Of a stretch of 64,000 nt of DNA, positions 6,608-58,311 are shown piece after piece (positions within the stretch are counted from its first letter, which is position 1; the number at the start of each line of letters is the position of its first letter). The stretch lies in the IMG/VR virus record IMGVR_UViG_3300036770_008730, one strand, 5' to 3'. This stretch comes from a virus. Lineage: Duplodnaviria; Caudoviricetes. The notes under the pieces are model-generated. The model did no database searches. It worked only from the letters and a program-made list of their open reading frames with translations, and had not been told where the DNA came from. The position numbers and the translations under genes are program-made.

Positions 6608-7216
6608 TTACATAGAAGGCTGATTCTCATCATCGTCATCATCTCCGACTTCTTCATCTTCCCAATTAGAATCATCATCAACCTCCTCTTCTTCATATTC
6701 ATCTTCAGGAAGTTCTCCTGTCTCATACTCATCAAATTCTTCTTCATACTCTGCATCAAATTCATTATCTTCTTCATCATCTTCATGATCGTGTGATGGA
6801 GATCCGTGATTCATTAAGAAATTATGAACGTGTTCTAGGTTTTCACAAGAAACCGATATGTGGTCTGAAGCCCAATCATGTTCTTTGAGTATCTCATCAA
6901 CTTCCTCTTGTGATAAATTCATAATAGCATCAATATATCTTTGCATTGTTTGAAGATTTGCAAAGAACATATAGTTACTTGTTGTTTGGTGTTCATTAAA
7001 GCTTTTAAGTCTTTTAGATTCATTTTGTTTCATGAAATCTGGTTCCTCAGAAAGATTATAAGGATTTTCTTGAGCTTCTTGTTTTTCATATTCAGTAAAC
7101 TCACCTGTTGGATTATTAACATCATATTCACCAGAATGTGTTTCCGGTTTATCGTCGGAATAAACTTCTGTTTCTTCTGGTAAGTTAAAATGTTCAAATT
7201 TTTTAATATTTTTCAT
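6608..7216 (-). CDS. Highly acidic putative internal head protein
   Basis: MKNIKKFEHF start, second motif ESKRLKSFNEH, long D/E C-terminal tail. Confidence 0.75.
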   Translation of the reverse strand: MKNIKKFEHFNLPEETEVYSDDKPETHSGEYDVNNPTGEFTEYEKQEAQENPYNLSEEPDFMKQNESKRLKSFNEHQTTSNYMFFANLQTMQRYIDAIMNLSQEEVDEILKEHDWASDHISVSCENLEHVHNFLMNHGSPSHDHEDDEEDNEFDAEYEEEFDEYETGELPEDEYEEEEVDDDSNWEDEEVGDDDDDENQPSM

Positions 7217-44164: not shown

Positions 44165-45862
44165 ATGGCTTCTTATAATAACTTCAATAGCTCTTCAAAT
44201 ACCGGTGGTTTTATTCAAAATTCAGCTGTTGAAAACAAAGGTTTATTCAGTAGAATACTAAGAAATCTATCATCATATGGTATGAATTATGATGATATGA
44301 TTATTCGTAATCAAGTTGGTATTGGTGTTAATGAAGATCCATATGCTGCAAGAGGAAATTCAATGTATGATTTTTTTTCACAGAGAGCTGTAGCTTCTGT
44401 TTTGAATCGAAAATCAATTCCTTATTTAGATAAATCTTATGCTGATAAAAGAAGAATTTTAAGAGAGTATTCTATAAAAGATGAGATACGAGACTTTGTA
44501 AGTTCTCTTTCAGATGAATGTATTATTTACAATGATGAGAGAGATTTTTGTTTTCCAAAAAAAATATCAAATGAATATCCTCAGGAAATTCAAGATAAAT
44601 ATCAAGAATACTTTGAAAAAGTCTATATTAAGTATGGATTTAGTGATAATATCAGTGCTTGGAGTATGATGAAAGACTTCCTTATTGATGGTTATTTAGC
44701 AGTAGAGATAGTCTATGATGATAAAAAGAAAAATATTATTGCTTTCAATAGATTAAGACCTGAGACTTTAGTTCCAGCATATGAACCAAATGTTGGTCAT
44801 CTTTGGATTCAATTTCCAGAAGATCCACAATTAAGAAGAATATTTTTAGATTCTCAAATTGTTTTTATTTCTTACTCTTCTCAGAACGATTATAGTGAGA
44901 CTTCCTATGTTGAGGGTTTAATTAAACCATATAATCAGTTAAAGATTTTAGAACAAACTAGAATTATGTTTAACGTTATTAATGCTACTATGTATCAAAA
45001 GTTTACTATACCAATTAAAGGTATGTCAAGACAAAGAGCTGAAGAGCAAATTGGGCAATTGATACAGGATTACTCAGAGGAAGTAGAATGGGATGATACA
45101 CTTGGTACGTTAAGCATCAATGGTTCAAAACATTTACCTTATAATAAGCAGATTTGGTTTCCTGATGGTGATGCTGGTACACCTAATATGGAATTAGTTA
45201 GTCAAGAAGGTCATAACTTGAATGAACAGGATATGTTGACTTGGTTTTTTAATGCTCTTAAAAGAGCGTCGAGAATACCACTTCAAAGATTTGAAAAAGA
45301 AAGTGGTGGTGGTAATTTAATTACTGATGCTGCTGAGATGACAAGAGATGAGATTAAGTTTTATAATTTTATCAATAGAATAAGGGCTAATTTCAAAGAG
45401 TTAATAGTTAAGCCTCTTAAATTACAAATGTTAATTGAATTTCCAGAATTAAAAGATGATGAGGTTTTCATAAATCAAATAGACATTGGATTCAATACTA
45501 ATCAAGTTTTTGAAGAGTGGAAGAAACTGAATAATATGAGTAAGAAGGCCGAGATTTTTGGAACTTTAATTGGTATTATGAATGGTGAAAAGCCTTATTT
45601 CCATATCGAGTATTTAATTGATAATGTTTTCAAACTTACGGCTGAAGAAAAGGCTGAGAATCAAAAGTATTGGGCTAAGGATGCGGCCGCTGCTGGTGCC
45701 GCTGCTCCCGCTGAGGGTGGTGCTCCTGCTGAAGGTGGTGGTGAAGCTCCTCCTGCTGAGGGTGGTGAAGCTCCTCCTGCTGAGGGTGGTGGTGAAGCTC
45801 CTCCTGCTGAGGGTGGTGGTGAAGCTCCTCCTGCTGAAGGTGGTGGTGAATTTGAATTTTAA
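44165..45862 (+). CDS. gp20: Portal vertex protein (T4 gp20-like)
   Basis: DFLIDGYLAVEI, LIKPYNQLKILE, KRASRIPLQRF, ITDAAEMTRDEIKFYNFINRIRANF; upstream of the protease and capsid genes. Confidence 0.9.
   Translation: MASYNNFNSSSNTGGFIQNSAVENKGLFSRILRNLSSYGMNYDDMIIRNQVGIGVNEDPYAARGNSMYDFFSQRAVASVLNRKSIPYLDKSYADKRRILREYSIKDEIRDFVSSLSDECIIYNDERDFCFPKKISNEYPQEIQDKYQEYFEKVYIKYGFSDNISAWSMMKDFLIDGYLAVEIVYDDKKKNIIAFNRLRPETLVPAYEPNVGHLWIQFPEDPQLRRIFLDSQIVFISYSSQNDYSETSYVEGLIKPYNQLKILEQTRIMFNVINATMYQKFTIPIKGMSRQRAEEQIGQLIQDYSEEVEWDDTLGTLSINGSKHLPYNKQIWFPDGDAGTPNMELVSQEGHNLNEQDMLTWFFNALKRASRIPLQRFEKESGGGNLITDAAEMTRDEIKFYNFINRIRANFKELIVKPLKLQMLIEFPELKDDEVFINQIDIGFNTNQVFEEWKKLNNMSKKAEIFGTLIGIMNGEKPYFHIEYLIDNVFKLTAEEKAENQKYWAKDAAAAGAAAPAEGGAPAEGGGEAPPAEGGEAPPAEGGGEAPPAEGGGEAPPAEGGGEFEF
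45704..45850 (+). repeat. GC-rich coding repeat (PPAEGG(G)EA)n at the portal C-terminus
   Basis: 24/27-bp units read directly. Confidence 0.9.
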
Positions 45863-46429: not shown

Positions 46430-48595
46430 ATGAAACCGGTTCTAATCGTAGAAAATTCAACTTCTTCTCTTCTCAGAGAGAATAATAGTGGCAGAAAAGA
46501 TTATGTGTTAGGTGGTACTTTTACAGAGTTTGGTGTTAAAAACCGTAACGAAAGAGTATATACAGCAGATAAATTTCTTCCAGCATTAGATGAACTTAAT
46601 GAGAGAATGAAAACGCTTGGTGCAGTTTACGGAGAATTCGATCATCCAGATGTTTTTGATACATCTTTATCAAGAGCATCACACGTTATCACAAAGGCAG
46701 AATACTTAAAAGAATCCAATAAAGTTACTGGTGAAATCAGACTACTTAGTACATATTGGGGTAAAGAAGCTAAGTCTTTGGTAGATGATGGATGTCCTGT
46801 CTTCGTATCTTCAAGAGCGGCTGGTGTTACAGAGTCTGATGGTTCTGTTTCTCTAAAAAAATTGTTCACATATGACATCGTTGCTGACCCAGGTTTTGCT
46901 TCTGCAAAAATGAGTGTTAAAAGTCTTAACGAGTCACTTGGATACAACCCAAAATCTAACTTTAGGATATATGAAATGTCCGATGAGTCCAAAATAAATG
47001 AACTATTCAATATGAATAAAGATGAATTTGTAACAAAAAAACAATTAACTGATTACTCTAAATATTTAGTTAATGAATTAGCTTCTACAAAGAAAGAAGT
47101 TAAGAGTGCAATTTCAAAAGGGAATATGAATCCTAAGAAATTGGAGCAGTTACTTGAATACTACGAAGAATTAAATAAGACAAACGGTCAAGTTGTTAAA
47201 TACTTAGACTATTTGGCTGAGAAAGTACAAGTAATGGTAAATGAAAACAAGTCTTTAAAAGCGACTACTGATAAACTTATTAAACACAATGATTATTTAG
47301 CAGAGAATTTAGAAAAAGCGGTAAACTATTCTGAATACTTAGCAGAAAATCTTGACAAAAACATTGAGTATTCTGAATACTTAGCAGAAAACTTAGATAG
47401 AAATATTTCTTATTCTGAGTATATCGCTGAAAATTTAGATAAAAACATTTCTTATTCTGAATACTTAGCAGAAAACTTAGATAAGAATATTGCTTACTCT
47501 GAGTATATCGCAGAAAACTTAGATAAGAATATCGCTTATTCTGAGTATATCGCAGAAAACTTAGACAAAAACATTGGATATTCTGAATATTTAGCTGAGC
47601 ATGTTGACAATTCAATTGCTTATTCTGAATATTTAGCTGAGCATGTTGAAGGTAACATCGCTTACTCTGAATACATTGCTGAACATTTAGATGATAACAT
47701 TGCTTATTCTGAGTATATCGCAGAAAATCTTGATAAATCAATTTCTTATCAGTCACTAATTACTGAAAAATTAAATGGTACAAGATTAAACGAAAATAAT
47801 GATCATGACGCTTTACCTGGAGTAAATGTTGTTGGTATTGAAAATGTTGAAGATGCTGACAATGATGATAATTGTGGACCAGTTAAAAATAATGATGGAG
47901 ACGATGATGATGCTGACTTAGCTGGTATCAGTCATGGTAATCCAGAAAATAAATGGAATAAAGAAAATAATGATGGAGACGGTGATGCTGATGGAGATGC
48001 TGATGCTGATGCTGATGGAGACGGAGCTTATGGACATGATGGTGCACATAACAACGCTCACTTAGAAGGTAACTCTGATTCTGAATTATCAAAATCTATT
48101 AATAAATTAATTGAAGAAGCTAAAAAACGTAAAGTTTCTGAAACAACTGACTTGAATTTCTTAAAGTTCTTAAACAAGTCACAAGTTGATAGCTTTTATG
48201 CACTTACAGAGAGTGAACAAGAAACTGTTAAACTTCACATAAACGAAAGAAGTTATTTCACACAAAAAGAAGTATTGTCTCTAATTGCAGAAGCTTTGTC
48301 TACAAAGAATGAATCTATCGAAGAAAGAGTAATCAGATTGATGCCTGAAAACATTAAGCCAATCTGGAATCAGTTAAATGAGTCTTCTAAAAAATCAGTG
48401 CTTTCACAAGCTAGATTATATCCAGAAGATGTATTAAAAACTGAAAATCAAGTTGAACATTTCTGGTTAACCAGAAATCTCAAAAAAAATGAGTCTGTAA
48501 CTAAAAAGTTAGTAGCACACGAAAGTTTAATACAAGAAGATAAACTTTCAGATAAAGATGTGAAAGCTATTATGGAAAGATTCAAAACAATTTAA
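46430..48595 (+). CDS. gp21: Prohead protease (gp21-like) fused to a scaffold (gp22-like) region
   Basis: GVKNRNERVY, GEFDHP, VSSRAAG, TYDIVADPGFASA; then coiled coil, 14-aa repeats and acidic linker. Confidence 0.88.
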   Translation: MKPVLIVENSTSSLLRENNSGRKDYVLGGTFTEFGVKNRNERVYTADKFLPALDELNERMKTLGAVYGEFDHPDVFDTSLSRASHVITKAEYLKESNKVTGEIRLLSTYWGKEAKSLVDDGCPVFVSSRAAGVTESDGSVSLKKLFTYDIVADPGFASAKMSVKSLNESLGYNPKSNFRIYEMSDESKINELFNMNKDEFVTKKQLTDYSKYLVNELASTKKEVKSAISKGNMNPKKLEQLLEYYEELNKTNGQVVKYLDYLAEKVQVMVNENKSLKATTDKLIKHNDYLAENLEKAVNYSEYLAENLDKNIEYSEYLAENLDRNISYSEYIAENLDKNISYSEYLAENLDKNIAYSEYIAENLDKNIAYSEYIAENLDKNIGYSEYLAEHVDNSIAYSEYLAEHVEGNIAYSEYIAEHLDDNIAYSEYIAENLDKSISYQSLITEKLNGTRLNENNDHDALPGVNVVGIENVEDADNDDNCGPVKNNDGDDDDADLAGISHGNPENKWNKENNDGDGDADGDADADADGDGAYGHDGAHNNAHLEGNSDSELSKSINKLIEEAKKRKVSETTDLNFLKFLNKSQVDSFYALTESEQETVKLHINERSYFTQKEVLSLIAEALSTKNESIEERVIRLMPENIKPIWNQLNESSKKSVLSQARLYPEDVLKTENQVEHFWLTRNLKKNESVTKKLVAHESLIQEDKLSDKDVKAIMERFKTI
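47327..47746 (+). repeat. Ten tandem 42-bp repeats encoding YSEY(L/I)AExxxxxxx
   Basis: Units counted from 47327 to 47746 with exact 42-bp period. Confidence 0.92.
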
Positions 48596-48673: not shown

Positions 48674-50368
48674 ATGTCACACATTAGAATAGACAAACAA
48701 AAAGCAGTTAAGAAATGGGCTCCAGTGTTGGAGAACATGGGTGTAACTGGTGAGAGAGTTGACTGGATGGCTGAATACGCTGAGTTCCACTCAATTAATG
48801 AAAATGCATACGTAAACGCTTCTAACGTAGCGGGTATGGGTGCTGTTTTTAATCCAACTGTAGGTACATTAGCTGGTAGCCCAACATTAGGTGGAGCACT
48901 TGCTGGTTCTGGAGATGTAGGTCAAAACTTACTTCCTGTAGCTATGAAAATTGCAGCTCAAACAATCGGTTTAGATTTAGTAGCTGTAAAACCTTCTCCA
49001 GGTCCAAAAATTGACTTACTTTATATCGATTTCCGTTATGACGATACTCGTGAAGGTAACTTAGATGAGAGACCACAAGTTTTCAAATTTAATCAAACTA
49101 CTTGGTTATCTGCTATTCAAGCAGCAATCAGAGCTGATTTAACTGTTGCTGGTGGTGCTCCTGCTGCTATTAGCGAATCAACTGGTGGTTTATCAAACGG
49201 TAGAGTATGGTATAATATCAATGATGGTAGTGTAACTTATACTGATCCAGGTTCTGGTTCAAAAGCTAACTTAGTTGAGTTCTTAGGTTTCTCTCGTATT
49301 GATGGTTATCCAATGTTCAGAGCTTACAGACAAAATAATACAGCTCATACAGCTACTAACCCAGCTGGTGGTTCTACATTATGGTCATTTGATGCTACTA
49401 GAAATACATTCAATGCAACACAGTCAATGACTGATCAAATCGTATTAATCGCTGGTGTTACTGCTTCGGGTGGTGCTGTTGAATTAGTATCTGCTCTTGA
49501 AGATCATATCCCAGGTTTCTCTGCAAACTGGACATCTGCATCTTCTGGAAGTGCTGCTGGTTCTTATCCAATGTCTCGTCAAGATGATGATGATACATAT
49601 GCAGGTGTTATTGGTCCTAAGATTTCTTCTAAAACTATCGCAGTTGGTACTATTGAAGTATCTTCAGCTTTAAGAAGAACTGAAATCGAAGATATCAAAG
49701 CTAACACAGGTATGGATATCGTTCAAAAAATGGAATCTATCTTAGTTAATGAATTATCTCAAACAATCTCTAAGCAAATTGTTGCTAAGATTTTTGAAAT
49801 GGGTGCGTTAAACAGATCTACTGCTCCTTTAAGAAGTGGTGCATCTATCTTTGACTTAGATACAAATTATGCATATGGTGCTTCTAGTCCGGGTGGTGAA
49901 ACTACACACGCGGTTCAACGTAAGTTAATCACTAAGATTGCTCACGCTTCTAACTATATCGCAACTGAAGGTCGTGTTGGTCCTGCTCAATACCTTATCA
50001 CAAACGGGGGTCTTGCAGCTGCTTTATCTGATATTGCTGGTTATACAATTAACCCTTTAAAATCTAAAATGAATACACAAGGTCAACTTTACCCAGTTGG
50101 TTCAATCGGTGATATTTCAATTTATGTTGACCCATATATGAAGTACAACGATAACAGAATCGTTTTAGGTCGTAAAAATAATCCTGACCAACCAGGTATC
50201 ATTTTCGTTCCTTACTTAATGGCTCAGTCTATTTCGGTTATCTCTGAAGCTACATTCGCTCCAAGAATGTTGTTAAGAAGCCGTTACGCTGTAGCAGAAG
50301 TAGGTTGGTTCCCACAAAAACAGTTCATGCAAATCAATGTAACTGATGGACAAGGATTTCTTAACTAA
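48674..50368 (+). CDS. gp23: Major capsid protein (T4 gp23-like)
   Basis: KKWAPVLE, LLPVAMKIAAQTIGLDLVAVKP, VYVDPY-like segment, FVPYLM, PRMLLRSRYAV. Confidence 0.92.
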   Translation: MSHIRIDKQKAVKKWAPVLENMGVTGERVDWMAEYAEFHSINENAYVNASNVAGMGAVFNPTVGTLAGSPTLGGALAGSGDVGQNLLPVAMKIAAQTIGLDLVAVKPSPGPKIDLLYIDFRYDDTREGNLDERPQVFKFNQTTWLSAIQAAIRADLTVAGGAPAAISESTGGLSNGRVWYNINDGSVTYTDPGSGSKANLVEFLGFSRIDGYPMFRAYRQNNTAHTATNPAGGSTLWSFDATRNTFNATQSMTDQIVLIAGVTASGGAVELVSALEDHIPGFSANWTSASSGSAAGSYPMSRQDDDDTYAGVIGPKISSKTIAVGTIEVSSALRRTEIEDIKANTGMDIVQKMESILVNELSQTISKQIVAKIFEMGALNRSTAPLRSGASIFDLDTNYAYGASSPGGETTHAVQRKLITKIAHASNYIATEGRVGPAQYLITNGGLAAALSDIAGYTINPLKSKMNTQGQLYPVGSIGDISIYVDPYMKYNDNRIVLGRKNNPDQPGIIFVPYLMAQSISVISEATFAPRMLLRSRYAVAEVGWFPQKQFMQINVTDGQGFLN

Positions 50369-50380
50369 TTCTTAATAATC

Positions 50381-50417
50381 AAAAGAAAAAGACCCTTAAT
50401 GGGTCTTTTTTCTTTTT
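50381..50417 (+). terminator. Strong terminator after the capsid gene
   Basis: aaaagaaaaagaccc-ttaat-gggtcttttttctttt. Confidence 0.85.
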
Positions 50418-50435
50418 AAAATTAATATATACTCT

Positions 50436-50852
50436 ATGAAGTATATCAAATATTTTGAAGGTAAAAAAGATAAATTTCCTAATCTTAAAAAGATTGAAAA
50501 GGATGAATTTGTAATATATGTAGGTGGTGATGCTAAATCTAATGACTATCTCACCTTCAATATGGCTAATGATGATGATATTTGGTTACATGCTATGGGT
50601 CTTCCAGGAAGTCATGTTGTTATCAAAATTAAAAGTTCCCAGAATATACAAGAAAAAACTTTACCTACAGATGTAGTCTTAAGATTTGCAGCTGAGTTGG
50701 CTAAAAAACACAGTAAAGCGCCTAAAGATCAACCCTGTGATGTTAGATGGTGCCAAAGAAAGTTTGTCTATAAAACACCAAATATGAATACAGGTGAAGT
50801 TGGAATAGAAAAGCAAATAGAAATGGATCCTACCAAAAAGATTACAATTTAA
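50436..50852 (+). CDS. Stand-alone NFACT RNA-binding (NFACT-R/DUF814) domain protein
   Basis: VGGDAKSNDYLT...DIWLHAMGLPGSHVVI...AAELAKKHSK...VRWCQRKFVYK. Confidence 0.85.
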   Translation: MKYIKYFEGKKDKFPNLKKIEKDEFVIYVGGDAKSNDYLTFNMANDDDIWLHAMGLPGSHVVIKIKSSQNIQEKTLPTDVVLRFAAELAKKHSKAPKDQPCDVRWCQRKFVYKTPNMNTGEVGIEKQIEMDPTKKITI

Positions 50853-50871
50853 TTTAATATATACTATTATT

Positions 50872-52212
50872 ATGGCTGAAATTAAACCCATCTTCACAGA
50901 AGAATTACAAAAAATTCTAAAAGAATTAGAATCAGAAAATAACTATGTTGCTTTTGAGTTGATGTGGATGTCTGAACCAGATTCTAAATTTCATAACGGA
51001 TTAAGAATATCAAAAGTAGATGTTTCTAAGCAGGATTATTGCTTTGATGTTACTATTGATGGTAAAACACATCCAATGAAAATTGGAAAGTTTATAAGAT
51101 ACTTTTTAGCTAATATTATAAAGGATAATGAGGCTGTTGAATTTTCAAAACTTTATAATAATCTTAAAAAAGGTGAAAAGATACAATCCGGAACTCCTAT
51201 TACTATTGATAAGTTTTCTTACAATCCAAGAGATGTTAAAGCAACTTTTCTTTCTTTGGTTACAAAAACTTATCCTCATGGACATGAAGAAGAAGTATTA
51301 CAATTTTTACCGGGACTTAAAAAAGATCAATTTGGTAACTACTATAAAATAATAGGTAATATACAACCTCAAACTATGTTTACCTCGCATTTAGACACCG
51401 CAGATAGACAGCAAAAAGTTACAAAACTTTTTTCTATGGTTGAAGATGGTGAAGAATATATTTATACTGATGAAAGTACTATATTAGGCGCTGATGATAA
51501 GTCTGGTGTTGTGGTGATGTTATATATGATGACATATAATATACCAGGTCTTTATTATTTCTTTATTGGTGAAGAAAGAGGTGGAATCGGTTCTAATGCA
51601 TTGGCTTCTATTTTTGACCAAATTGATTATTTGAAGAATGTCAAAAGATGTATATCTTTTGATAGAAGAAACTATCACTCTGTTATCACAAGTCAATTAG
51701 GAAGAACTTGTTGTTCTAATGAGTTTGGAAATGCACTTTGTGATGAATATAATAGAAATGGATTAAGTTTATCTTTAGATAATACAGGTATTTACACAGA
51801 TTCTGCATCTTTTATGGATGATATTAGAGAATGTACTAATATATCTGTTGGTTATTTTAATGAACATACTGGAAAAGAATATCAAAATATAACTTACTTA
51901 AAGAATCTTTGTGAAGCTTCTGTTAAGGTTAATTGGAATTCTTTGCCTTCTGTTAGAAAGGCTGGATTAAATGAGGAAGTTATGAAAAAACACAGATTGC
52001 TTATCCAAGATATAAAAAAATCTGTTTTTGACTTAGAAACAAAAATAGTTGGTGAAGAAGGTAGAGTGTTTATCAGAGTTGATTTAGATGAGACTGACGT
52101 TGACGCTATTTCCAATGGCTTAAACATGGTTGATAGTATTCTTACTAAACATAAAATTAACAACAATGATGTAGTATTTACCAATACTTACATGAAAATA
52201 GAATTAAGATAA
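50872..52212 (+). CDS. M20/M28-family metallopeptidase with N-terminal phage module
   Basis: SHLDT, LGADDKSG, GEERG, SFDRR, YTDS, SVGYFNEHT metal ligands. Confidence 0.8.
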   Translation: MAEIKPIFTEELQKILKELESENNYVAFELMWMSEPDSKFHNGLRISKVDVSKQDYCFDVTIDGKTHPMKIGKFIRYFLANIIKDNEAVEFSKLYNNLKKGEKIQSGTPITIDKFSYNPRDVKATFLSLVTKTYPHGHEEEVLQFLPGLKKDQFGNYYKIIGNIQPQTMFTSHLDTADRQQKVTKLFSMVEDGEEYIYTDESTILGADDKSGVVVMLYMMTYNIPGLYYFFIGEERGGIGSNALASIFDQIDYLKNVKRCISFDRRNYHSVITSQLGRTCCSNEFGNALCDEYNRNGLSLSLDNTGIYTDSASFMDDIRECTNISVGYFNEHTGKEYQNITYLKNLCEASVKVNWNSLPSVRKAGLNEEVMKKHRLLIQDIKKSVFDLETKIVGEEGRVFIRVDLDETDVDAISNGLNMVDSILTKHKINNNDVVFTNTYMKIELR

Positions 52213-52213
52213 T

Positions 52214-52684
52214 ATGAATCTAAAAAAGTTTAATCAATTTGAAAAATACGAAAGTCCTTGGGATGAAGAAGATGAGTCATATTATAACGATGATCAATAT
52301 CTTTTTGGAAGACCATATCATTCAAATAAAGACAAAGGCAAATCTGAAGAAGAAGAGGAGGAAGATGAGTATGAAGATATAGATGATGATCAGAATGAGG
52401 ATATTCAACACTTGATGGATTTATTGAGAACCTATTTTGAAAACCAAGGTGTAGAAGTAGATATAGAAAATAAAGGATTAGATATCACAATATCAACTTA
52501 TCTTAATAAAGTAGAGAAATTAAAAAATATCATTAAAGTTTTTAACATAGTTAAAAAAGTTAAAAAAGATATTTTACCACAATATGAATCTGAGTTTGAA
52601 CTATGGGAAACAAAGGATAAAAGTCCTGTGCTTTATTTTAGTTTTTACTATGAAGGTGATTTCGATGATGAAAAACCATTCTAA
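52214..52684 (+). CDS. Acidic putative internal head protein
   Basis: MNLKKFNQFEKYE start; poly-E/D tract. Confidence 0.7.
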   Translation: MNLKKFNQFEKYESPWDEEDESYYNDDQYLFGRPYHSNKDKGKSEEEEEEDEYEDIDDDQNEDIQHLMDLLRTYFENQGVEVDIENKGLDITISTYLNKVEKLKNIIKVFNIVKKVKKDILPQYESEFELWETKDKSPVLYFSFYYEGDFDDEKPF

Positions 52685-52705
52685 ACTTTTCTTAATTTTT
52701 TAATA

Positions 52706-52714
52706 TTATATATA
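52706..52714 (+). promoter_or_regulatory. Late-type promoter TTATATATA of the tmRNA
   Basis: Ends 4 nt before tmRNA G1 at 52719. Confidence 0.65.
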
Positions 52715-52718
52715 CTTT

Positions 52719-53094
52719 GGGGAAGTGATAGAATAGATTCGCAGAGTGAGATCAATTATGCAGACATCGGTTGGTAAAATATCCGATTAATAAATTAGGT
52801 TACATCTGTCTTAAATGGCAAAACAAATGAAGTAGGAACCCGTGAAGATTTAGTAGCGGCTCTACAAAACAACCTGTTCTTGGTAGAAGAACTAGAGACA
52901 GCTTAACAAAGCATCTCTAAAAAATTCTCCAACTGAATCACAACAGTTCATAAAATAGTGAAACCTGAGTTGTTAGAATGGCGGGTAATTCAACTAACTA
53001 TTTTGTGAGTTTAGAAAAACTTTCTAAGTCTGTGAATGAATAGTTTATTTTAACTGAGGAAGACACCAGGGGCGGTTCCTGGTCTTCTCCACCA
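52719..53094 (+). ncRNA. ssrA: tmRNA
   Basis: 5' GGGGAAG pairs with CTTCTCC-A-CCA giving the G3.U70 Ala identity pair; T-arm ACCAGG-GGCGGTT-CCTGGT; PK1-like atcgg/ccgat; tag frame 52817-52906 with its stop in an H5-like hairpin; encoded CCA. Confidence 0.9.
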
Positions 53095-53098
53095 CATT

Positions 53099-53124
53099 AA
53101 AAGTCCACTTTGGTGGACTTTTTT
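53099..53124 (+). terminator. Terminator after the tmRNA
   Basis: aaaagtccac-tttg-gtggactttttt. Confidence 0.88.
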
Positions 53125-53145
53125 AGTTTAAAACATATAAATTAA

Positions 53146-53628
53146 ATGATAGATAAATTTGACGGTAAATACCGATTCTTAAGTAACTTTTATCCCTGTA
53201 AAATAGAACATCAGGGAATCACTTATCCAAGTGTGGAACATTATTATGTTGCAATGAAAGTCAATGATGAACAACTTATTAATGGTAAATATTACACTCC
53301 TGGTGATTTTAGAGAAATGATAAGTAGAGTAAAAGAAGCTGCCTTAGTTAAAAAAATTGGAAATAAAATTAAATTAAGATCTGACTGGGATAATAAAAAG
53401 TTAGATGTAATGAATTGGGCAATTAGAGAAAAATTCAAAGATGAGAATCTGAAGGAATTGTTACTTGGTACCGGTGATCAGGAACTTATTGAGGGAAATT
53501 TTTGGAAGGACTTTTTCTGGGGAGTTTGTAACGGTAGGGGCCAAAATCATTTAGGTAAAATCTTAATGATAGTTAGAGATGAGATAAGAGGAATCAAAAA
53601 GACTGGATTGGAAGAGTTTCTTAAATAG
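53146..53628 (+). CDS. NADAR (YbiA-like) protein
   Basis: FLSNFYP, SVEHYY.AMK, LRSDWD, ELIEGN.WKDFFWG, GQNHLGKILM. Confidence 0.92.
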   Translation: MIDKFDGKYRFLSNFYPCKIEHQGITYPSVEHYYVAMKVNDEQLINGKYYTPGDFREMISRVKEAALVKKIGNKIKLRSDWDNKKLDVMNWAIREKFKDENLKELLLGTGDQELIEGNFWKDFFWGVCNGRGQNHLGKILMIVRDEIRGIKKTGLEEFLK

Positions 53629-57174: not shown

Positions 57175-58311
57175 ATGAAAATTAAACTTGAATACATTTG
57201 GTTAGATGGATCTAATCCCCAACAATTGCGAAGCAAAACTAAAATAACAAATCAACAGCATGGATTGGATGCAACAAAATATGATATCTGGTCTTTTGAT
57301 GGTAGCTCAACAAATCAGGCTAAATCCGGTAAAGGAAAAAATACAGATTGTTTACTAAAACCAGTTTTTGTATCTGATGATCCATTCAGAGGAAGTCCAC
57401 ATAAATTGGTCCTTTGTGAGGTTCTTACTCCAGAAGGAAATCCACATCCTTCAAATCACAGAAGATCATTAGAAGCACTTTTAAACGAGTTGAATCTTGG
57501 AGGTGCAGATAAGTTTGCAGGAACTGATTGGTCAAATATATATGAATCCTTCAAAAAAGATTCGCCTTGGTTTGGATGGGAACAAGAATATACACTAACT
57601 CATAAACCAAATTCACCATTTTCGGCTGGTATTGGAATTCCTTTAGGATTCTCATCAGACTATCACAATCCTATTAAGACACCTCGTCCTCAAGGCGATT
57701 ATTATTGTGGTGTGGGTGCTGATACGGTTGTAGGTAGAGAAATCGTTGAGGAGCATATGGATAAATGTATAGAAATTGGTCTATGTATTTCTGGAATTAA
57801 TGCTGAGGTGTTATTAGGTCAATGGGAATATCAAATTGGACCGGTTACTGCATTGAACGGATCTGATCAATTATGGATATCTCGATATATTCTTCAGAGA
57901 GTCGCTGAAAAGCACAATATAAATGTGTCTTTGCATCCAAAACCAATTAAAGGAGATTGGAACGGAACTGGTTGTCATGTCAATTTCTCAACAAAAGAAA
58001 TGAGAGAAAAAGGTGGTTTATCTTTAATAAAAGAAACTATGGAAAAACTTAAAGAAAATCATAGAAATCATATCGAAGTTTATGGTCTACATAATGAAGA
58101 AAGATTGACTGGTGAACACGAGACCTCTGGTATTAATGATTTTAGCTTTGGATTTTCAACTCGTGATACTTCTATACGTATACCAGCTCAATCAATTATT
58201 GATGAAAGAGGATATTTTGAAGACAGGAGACCAGCCTCAAACTGCGATCCATATTTAGTTGCAGCTAGAATGTTAAAAACTGTTTACTCTGAAGTAAATC
58301 AAGAGGCTTAA
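57175..58311 (+). CDS. glnII: Glutamine synthetase, type II (GlnII-like)
   Basis: EYIWLDG, FDGSST.QA, WEQEY, GINAEV..GQWEYQIGP, HPKPIKGDWNGTGCH, RLTGEHET, SIRIP, YFEDRRPASNCDPY. Confidence 0.93.
   Translation: MKIKLEYIWLDGSNPQQLRSKTKITNQQHGLDATKYDIWSFDGSSTNQAKSGKGKNTDCLLKPVFVSDDPFRGSPHKLVLCEVLTPEGNPHPSNHRRSLEALLNELNLGGADKFAGTDWSNIYESFKKDSPWFGWEQEYTLTHKPNSPFSAGIGIPLGFSSDYHNPIKTPRPQGDYYCGVGADTVVGREIVEEHMDKCIEIGLCISGINAEVLLGQWEYQIGPVTALNGSDQLWISRYILQRVAEKHNINVSLHPKPIKGDWNGTGCHVNFSTKEMREKGGLSLIKETMEKLKENHRNHIEVYGLHNEERLTGEHETSGINDFSFGFSTRDTSIRIPAQSIIDERGYFEDRRPASNCDPYLVAARMLKTVYSEVNQEA

Follow-up and report, generated by a model that had tools for sequence, protein, structure and literature searches.

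A stand-alone NFACT-R protein and an atypical tmRNA in a conserved gene block of huge T4-like phages: a possible ribosome-rescue kit

Transfer-messenger RNA (tmRNA, encoded by ssrA) and its partner SmpB are already known from phages, and ssrA has been described in Bacillus phage G as well as in mycobacteriophages and huge phages (PMC4131195, PMC7162821). The usual ssrA tag has about 10 amino acids and an ALAA end for ClpXP; a long tag, read by Lon, occurs in Mollicutes (PMC9382460). In RqcH of Bacillus subtilis, the tRNA is held by NFACT-N together with HhH, and the NFACT-R domain touches helix 38 of the 23S rRNA through D482, W484 and H486. This DWH motif is required for binding to the 50S subunit, for which the NFACT-R and CC-M contacts are both needed. 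Yeast Jlp2, a solo NFACT-R protein, is reported to release peptides from ribosome-bound peptidyl-tRNA, and to depend for this on its H44 (H41 in CCDC25), with no decision by the authors on whether further NFACT-R domains that bear the His act alike (bioRxiv 10.1101/2025.09.04.673968, preprint). Here we analyze a stretch of 64,000 nucleotides of viral DNA (IMG/VR record IMGVR_UViG_3300036770_008730), called the window below, in which genes for a stand-alone NFACT-R protein, a metallopeptidase, an acidic protein (ORF156) and a tmRNA form a block downstream of the major capsid gene (Table 1). A previous interpretation made from the letters of this stretch (the sequence-only reading) had proposed a rescue module of NFACT-R, peptidase, tmRNA and the adjoining NADAR gene; all four are present where it placed them, while ORF156, between peptidase and tmRNA, was missing from that account. 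What is new is a tmRNA variant that standard tools do not see across a megaphage clade, and a phage family of solo NFACT-R proteins with a testable Jlp2-like mechanism.

By its gene content and capsid sequence, the window phage is a T4-like giant phage related to the Mahaphage genomes of 635-642 kb; it belongs to a family of very large phages from lakes. The window encodes a prohead protease, a gp23 capsid protein, head closure and a late sigma factor of T4-like type. Genomes larger than 634 kb all fall in the Mahaphage clade, with predicted hosts among the Bacteroidetes (Al-Shayeb 2020, PMC7162821). The same block is present in two complete relatives that probably belong to this clade, LR745206 (634,780 bp) and LR756502 (642,428 bp), whose capsid proteins are 76-78% identical to that of the window phage. 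The first 200 files of the supplement text of Al-Shayeb 2020 mention SmpB and have no tmRNA entry (PMC7162821); to the extent of those files, this tmRNA may therefore be unannotated.

The atypical tmRNA announced by the sequence-only reading proved to be real when relatives were compared. Neither ARAGORN nor the Rfam gathering cut-off gave a tmRNA call in the window, where the RF00023 score is only 9.6 bits (cut-off 47), and default ARAGORN gave none in about 90 close loci. Relaxed ARAGORN produced many false calls, yet pointed to the same resume codon in several relatives. Homologs were sought with an nhmmer profile. All 46 distinct tmRNA copies have an Ala-type acceptor stem with G3·U70 and A73. 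The CCA end is encoded in the window tmRNA, and in just 4 of the 46 copies overall. Most copies have a T-arm with a 6-bp stem and a GGCRGUN loop, and no canonical 5-bp stem with UUCRANY loop was found in the window or its close clade. Compensatory changes affect five of the six T-stem pairs. Over 49 pairs of the acceptor stem, helix 2, pseudoknot 1 (pk1), the hairpin in the tag frame, pk2, pk4 and the T-stem, 96% of positions are paired and 29 pairs show compensatory change, against 36-41% paired in slid controls; the figure of 96% leans high because the structure was derived from the same alignment, though the covariation of the T-stem would by itself be strong evidence. Helix 2, pk2 and stem 1 of pk4 covary, and stem 2 of pk4 is paired without covariation.

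Two distant orthologs (L108 and L109) have a canonical T-loop, pass ARAGORN, which reads in them a long tag of the family seen in the window, and score 50.4 and 58.7 bits against RF00023. Their matches to the window RNA (E 4e-11 and 3e-23) span almost all of it. The odd T-arm is thus a variant within one orthologous family; it is probably derived, in a tree that is unrooted, and it is the likely reason why default tools miss this tmRNA. Its 6-bp stem and GGCRGUN loop presumably resemble alphaproteobacterial tmRNA, a likeness for which we found no passage in the literature. Taken whole, it is almost certain, as far as comparison of the RNAs allows, that this is a true one-piece tmRNA that would be charged with Ala through G3·U70, as in established tmRNA biology. 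The charged RNA would enter stalled ribosomes with SmpB and let translation resume at 52817, adding a tag of 30 residues.

The tag is unusual. It has 27-29 codons across the family, with insertions and deletions of 3 or 6 nt and about twice as much variation at third codon positions. The final residue is Ala in 20 copies and Val in 26 (46/46), none ends in Ala-Ala, and acidic residues lie close to the end. We consider it probably an altered degron, which would be read by a protease other than the standard ClpXP, or read weakly. The tag might instead be a deliberate non-degron that frees the ribosome and spares the product, as the missing Ala-Ala end, the acidic residues and the contrast with usual short tags suggest. 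However, the constraint on the last residue and the conservation of the peptide over its whole length point to a reader and favor an altered degron over a neutral tail, and long tags read by Lon have a precedent in Mollicutes. We therefore regard the non-degron as a lesser, though quite real, possibility.

Canonical SmpB was detected above cut-off in G001, W01 and W02, that is, in both complete relatives and in a close 385-kb genome (G001) that is among the nearest relatives of the window. In the two complete genomes the gene, which was already annotated, lies about 130 kb from the block. This SmpB is one of a large family of proteins of 144-146 amino acids, some on contigs of 630-642 kb. No smpB was seen in the window, which was not scanned over its whole length with the SmpB model. 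No canonical tmRNA was found in the three SmpB-encoding relatives, which makes the atypical tmRNA the natural partner of this SmpB. The same three genomes encode a CCA-adding-type enzyme. A search for Pth in four relatives was negative, as was one for NFACT-N (PF05833) in five, two of them complete genomes. LR745206 (L101 1423-1839) and LR756502 (L100) also harbor a short GGQ protein of 138 amino acids, which is like the C-terminal part of RF1 rather than like ArfB and is a possible codon-independent rescue factor.

The NFACT-R protein matches PF05670 above cut-off (E 3.5e-14) and contains no further domain. Its family, mostly of 127-138 amino acids and carried on phage contigs, forms its own branch apart from full-length RqcH (47 rows; Shimodaira-Hasegawa-like approximate likelihood ratio test, SH-aLRT, 94) in a quick tree of profile-selected rows. 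A pattern-limited search of genome contigs returned just two full-length RqcH genes, so solo copies may still exist in cells. The predicted model (predicted local distance difference test, pLDDT, 88.6) matches the fold of RqcH with Z 17.9 and that of CCDC25 with Z 15.2 (root-mean-square deviation 1.7 over 113 residues). N36, D48, W50, H52 and H60 are invariant in 120/120 close homologs, K90, K94 and K113 are conserved basic residues, and the spacing of H52 and H60, 8 residues, is that of H44 and H52 in Jlp2. There is also a divergent NFACT-R subfamily with an inserted loop, located directly 5' of the peptidase gene in L030, L031, L043, L053, L057, L067, L071 and L077; in the peptidase tree it turns up at two places apart from each other. 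Some of its members keep His52; others are His-less and no longer match Pfam. One genome that seemed to lack NFACT-R (G002) was ruled out as such, since a divergent His-less copy is present.

The sequence-only reading had also seen a capsid-targeting motif on NFACT-R. The T4 capsid targeting sequence (CTS) is an N-terminal propeptide of 10-20 residues that directs packaging and is cleaved (PMC5694885). A loose CTS-like pattern, K/R-aromatic...Glu, written after the N-termini of the window had been seen, fits 7 of 57 genes in the window, while internal positions fit it at a rate of 0.5%. Glu8 of NFACT-R is kept in 117/120 homologs. The motif is present, with capsid targeting as its putative role. 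CTS-like N-termini ending in Glu were found in seven window genes, at 2094, 3424, 4390, 6608-7216, 43709, 50436 and 52214, whose products are, by this N-terminal signature, candidate head-packaged, injected proteins.

The sequence-only reading had made its case depend on co-occurrence of NFACT-R with ssrA in related phages, and NFACT-R is present in 41 of the 44 distinct tmRNA-bearing loci (37 with His52), so the lack of co-occurrence named as its refutation was not observed. All 44 also carry the peptidase and NADAR, while a DNA methylase is found in 40 and ORF156 in 36. These are 44 of 46 distinct capsid-anchored loci. Two loci lack the block near the capsid gene, and in them it lies at distances of 16 kb and about 44 kb. 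The trio of NFACT-R, peptidase and tmRNA again stands together in five distant loci, with ORF156 in four; no capsid, NADAR or methylase match was detected in the compared stretch of these five, of which L113 and L114 have little DNA past the tmRNA. NADAR, which had been counted among the module, thus has no match beside the block in the distant loci and was set apart from its core. Among close relatives the linkage is indistinguishable from ordinary inheritance of gene order. A functional linkage of the block is plausible, on modest support.

We propose that the block is part of the megaphage's own ribosome-rescue kit. In this proposal, the solo NFACT-R would derive from the C-terminal domain of RqcH and act like yeast Jlp2 as a peptidyl-tRNA release factor, with His52 freeing nascent chains from peptidyl-tRNA on large subunits or stalled ribosomes, a role that the sequence-only reading had not considered. 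It would complement the tmRNA instead of binding it. The late-promoter motif and the T4-type N-terminal peptide suggest that it may be packaged and injected; the peptidase might trim the released peptides, and NADAR would be an ADP-ribose counter-defence enzyme that is a neighbor by chance. We put this explanation as a whole forward tentatively, rating it somewhat below an even chance, with the NFACT-R step setting the limit. Rather unlikely, in our judgment, is a wider version in which megaphages independently freed the RqcH C-terminal domain and turned it into a virion-delivered, His-dependent peptidyl-tRNA release factor, a Jlp2 counterpart outside eukaryotes, working with a linked peptidase and a tmRNA that has a long, non-standard degron of its own.

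Several observations weigh against the release-factor proposal. His52 is no proof of catalysis, because RqcH has the same His (H486) in its 50S-binding DWH motif. In sequence the phage domain matches RqcH with E 1e-23 and CCDC25, less closely, with E 1e-11, and the model aligns only to CCDC25 residues 1-122. The equivalence of His52 with CCDC25 H41 is likely, but was read from where the alignment stops, with the offset of the tag assumed: the match ends at index 51 of 8woh_B, which places the His at residue 41 if the tag is numbered -8..0. His52 was lost in four divergent relatives (L053, L057 and L077 and, by homology, L071 with a 71%-identical copy), all of which keep the tmRNA, as does one lineage without NFACT-R. 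Inversions in three loci put the tmRNA 4.8-6.7 kb away on the other strand, and in close relatives a DNA methylase with no relation to rescue shows linkage of about the same tightness (40/44). Finally, the five capsid-less loci form one clade, so that their linkage may reflect a single event.

Other roles for the protein start from the same evidence. The sequence-only reading had suggested that the phage may supply or hijack both Ala-tagging routes; trans-translation is indeed supplied, but the RqcH-type Ala-tailing beside it is largely refuted and extremely improbable. Homology to the C-terminal domain of RqcH is in its favor, yet without the NFACT-N, HhH and coiled-coil domains, which hold tRNA-Ala and span the 50S, the phage protein cannot add Ala tails, and none of the five relatives searched, two of them complete, provides the NFACT-N that, with HhH, holds the tRNA in RqcH. 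The same reading had offered NFACT-R as an SmpB-like partner, and an accessory role making up for the odd T-arm could be imagined for a predicted RNA-binding domain encoded beside the tmRNA in nearly all loci. This we hold to be very unlikely. The model folds as an NFACT-R domain and its structural matches include no SmpB, there is no SmpB family match, and the last 20 residues have a net charge of -1 instead of a basic tail; NFACT-R occurs with canonical-T-loop tmRNAs (L108, L109) and is absent in an odd-loop lineage. Nor is a substitute needed, since two complete relatives and one of 385 kb encode canonical SmpB.

A non-catalytic role, in which the protein binds the A-site finger (H38) of the 50S via its DWH residues and acts, in competition with host RqcH or some other factor, as a ribosome modulator or as the decoy offered by the sequence-only reading, is unlikely but merits attention. 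In its favor are the DWH motif, through which RqcH contacts the 50S and which does not vary in the main family, a sequence whose closest kin is bacterial RqcH, and the conserved basic residues K90, K94 and K113. However, one domain may bind weakly, because RqcH depends on its CC-M contact as well as on that of NFACT-R, and the predicted host group may lack RqcH: a Bacteroides control of one genome had no PF05670, and we found no published passage on the distribution of RqcH in Bacteroidota. Similarly improbable is a small internal protein of the head that binds nucleic acid and has no part in ribosome function, and whose proximity to the tmRNA is inherited gene order. The CTS-like N-terminus and late-promoter motif, common to other window genes, would fit such a protein, as would the usual position directly 3' of the capsid gene, the crystallization of CCDC25 on DNA, the retention of the N-terminal motif in His-less variants and the similar linkage of the methylase. 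Against this, none of the pocket residues varies in 120 homologs, the block keeps its tmRNA even where the capsid gene lies at a distance, and the clade invests in rescue factors elsewhere in its genomes.

The layout of the locus is given in Table 1. NFACT-R and tmRNA are spaced by 1,866 nt, and NADAR starts 51 nt past the CCA of the tmRNA, with a predicted terminator between them. There are 20 copies of TAATATATA in the window, on both strands and mostly directly 5' of gene starts, including those of the portal and capsid genes (for example at 2080, 16490, 44133, 48639 and 50423). It is, by this placement, likely the late promoter of the clade. Because the capsid gene and the tmRNA each have a predicted terminator behind them, and NFACT-R and the peptidase have TAATATATA copies of their own, the block probably comprises several transcription units rather than one operon. 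Of 53 related upstream regions, 32 have a TAnnTTTG box (Bacteroidetes-type) 5' of the tmRNA; the window is without it, and its positions 52700-52719 lack both the box and the short leader that most relatives have before the tmRNA. A late-promoter-like motif in the window ends about 7 nt 5' of the mature tmRNA 5' end.

Table 1. Features of the NFACT-R/tmRNA block and its flanks, in coordinates of the window
Feature	Position	Strand	Basis or remark
Major capsid protein, gp23-like; context, outside the block	48674..50368	+	PF07068 E 5.8e-28; apart from the block in one lineage
Predicted terminator-like hairpin between capsid gene and NFACT-R	50385..50411	+	
TAATATATA, probable phage late promoter of NFACT-R	50423..50431	+	promoter role inferred
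NFACT-R, stand-alone, 138 aa; CTS-like residues 1-8; D48-x-W50-x-H52, G58-S59-H60	50436..50852	+	Pfam PF05670
His52 codon of NFACT-R; corresponds to RqcH H486 and, with numbering inferred, to CCDC25 H41 / Jlp2 H44	50589..50591	+	
TAATATATA, probable late promoter of the peptidase	50855..50863	+	promoter role inferred
M20/M28-clan metallopeptidase, 446 aa	50872..52212	+	PF04389, PHROG 4191, ortholog alignment
ORF156, acidic 156-aa protein with CTS-like N-terminus, part of the conserved block	52214..52684	+	
One-piece tmRNA, 376 nt	52719..53094	+	comparative analysis; orthologs pass ARAGORN and RF00023
tmRNA pseudoknots pk1; pk2; pk4	52766-52803; ~52933-52961; ~53007-53027	+	
Tag reading frame, 29 codons + TAA, starts GKTN, ends EELETA	52817..52906	+	
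Covarying hairpin inside the tag frame	52834-52863	+	
Atypical T-arm: 6-bp stem, 7-nt loop GGCGGUU (family consensus GGCRGUN)	53065..53083	+	
Predicted terminator-like hairpin 3' of the tmRNA	53099..53122	+	similar hairpins in relatives
NADAR ribosyl N-glycosidase; neighbor, outside the core block	53146..53628	+	E 7.8e-26

The peptidase matches PF04389 weakly (E 0.0066) and a PHROG 4191 peptidase strongly (E 2.6e-67), and is PepT-like. Its ligands H173, D175, D208/D209, E234, E235, D264 and H332 are intact, and the metal-ligand and catalytic positions are near-invariant in 68 orthologs. NFACT-R is fused to the M28 peptidase in one of the five distant loci (L099, 7001-8500), a single protein cluster on a 629-kb contig. 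ORF156 gave no Pfam match, and its Atlas feature neighbors are unnamed viral clusters. NADAR was reported in more than 48% of medium and jumbo phages and was read there as ADP-ribose counter-defence.

Some further features of the structural genes and flanks were observed. The prohead protease (46430-48595, 721 amino acids) has ten 14-residue repeats (YSEY, residues 300-426) past its protease domain, possibly a fused scaffold. The portal protein (44165-45862) carries C-terminal repeats rich in Glu, Gly, Ala and Pro. A GlnII-type glutamine synthetase is encoded at 57175-58311. Several loci, among them L093 (12804-13250), have 3' of the methylase gene another match to gp23, a diverged one of 24-28% identity; none was found in the window stretch tested.

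Since default tools miss the tmRNA of a whole clade of huge phages, counts of phage tmRNAs that rely on ARAGORN or Rfam fall short of the true number. The tag of 27-29 codons is a candidate orthogonal degron. The phage family of small NFACT-R proteins offers a minimal test case for whether His-bearing NFACT-R domains are general release factors. Its naturally occurring His-less variants can serve as controls, and the outcome would matter for H486 of RqcH too.

Compared with known tmRNA/SmpB systems (RF00023 and the phage ssrA genes cited above; PMC4131195, PMC7162821), the window family shares the one-piece gene, the Ala acceptor stem, pk1, the resume context, the tag frame and the downstream pseudoknots, and SmpB is encoded in the same clade. 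It differs from the usual tmRNA in its longer T-stem, its loop, its long tag without an Ala-Ala end and the rarity of an encoded CCA, and in escaping default ARAGORN and the Rfam cut-off. Mollicute ssrA (PMC9382460) likewise has an extended tag with a non-LAA end, but the phage tag is without the NYAFA motif and belongs to another host group. With RqcH, the phage protein has in common the C-terminal domain and the DWH motif (D482/W484/H486, corresponding to D48/W50/H52); it differs in being without NFACT-N, HhH and CC-M, and the phage domains form a branch of their own. From Jlp2/CCDC25 (bioRxiv 10.1101/2025.09.04.673968; PMC4075521) it is set apart by being viral and nearer to bacterial RqcH, by the absence of a C-terminal extension, by its CTS-like N-terminus, and by apparently having Lys or Met in place of Jlp2 D46. 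Like them, however, it is a solo NFACT-R protein of the same fold, with a His at an apparently equivalent position and a neighboring Asn and second His.

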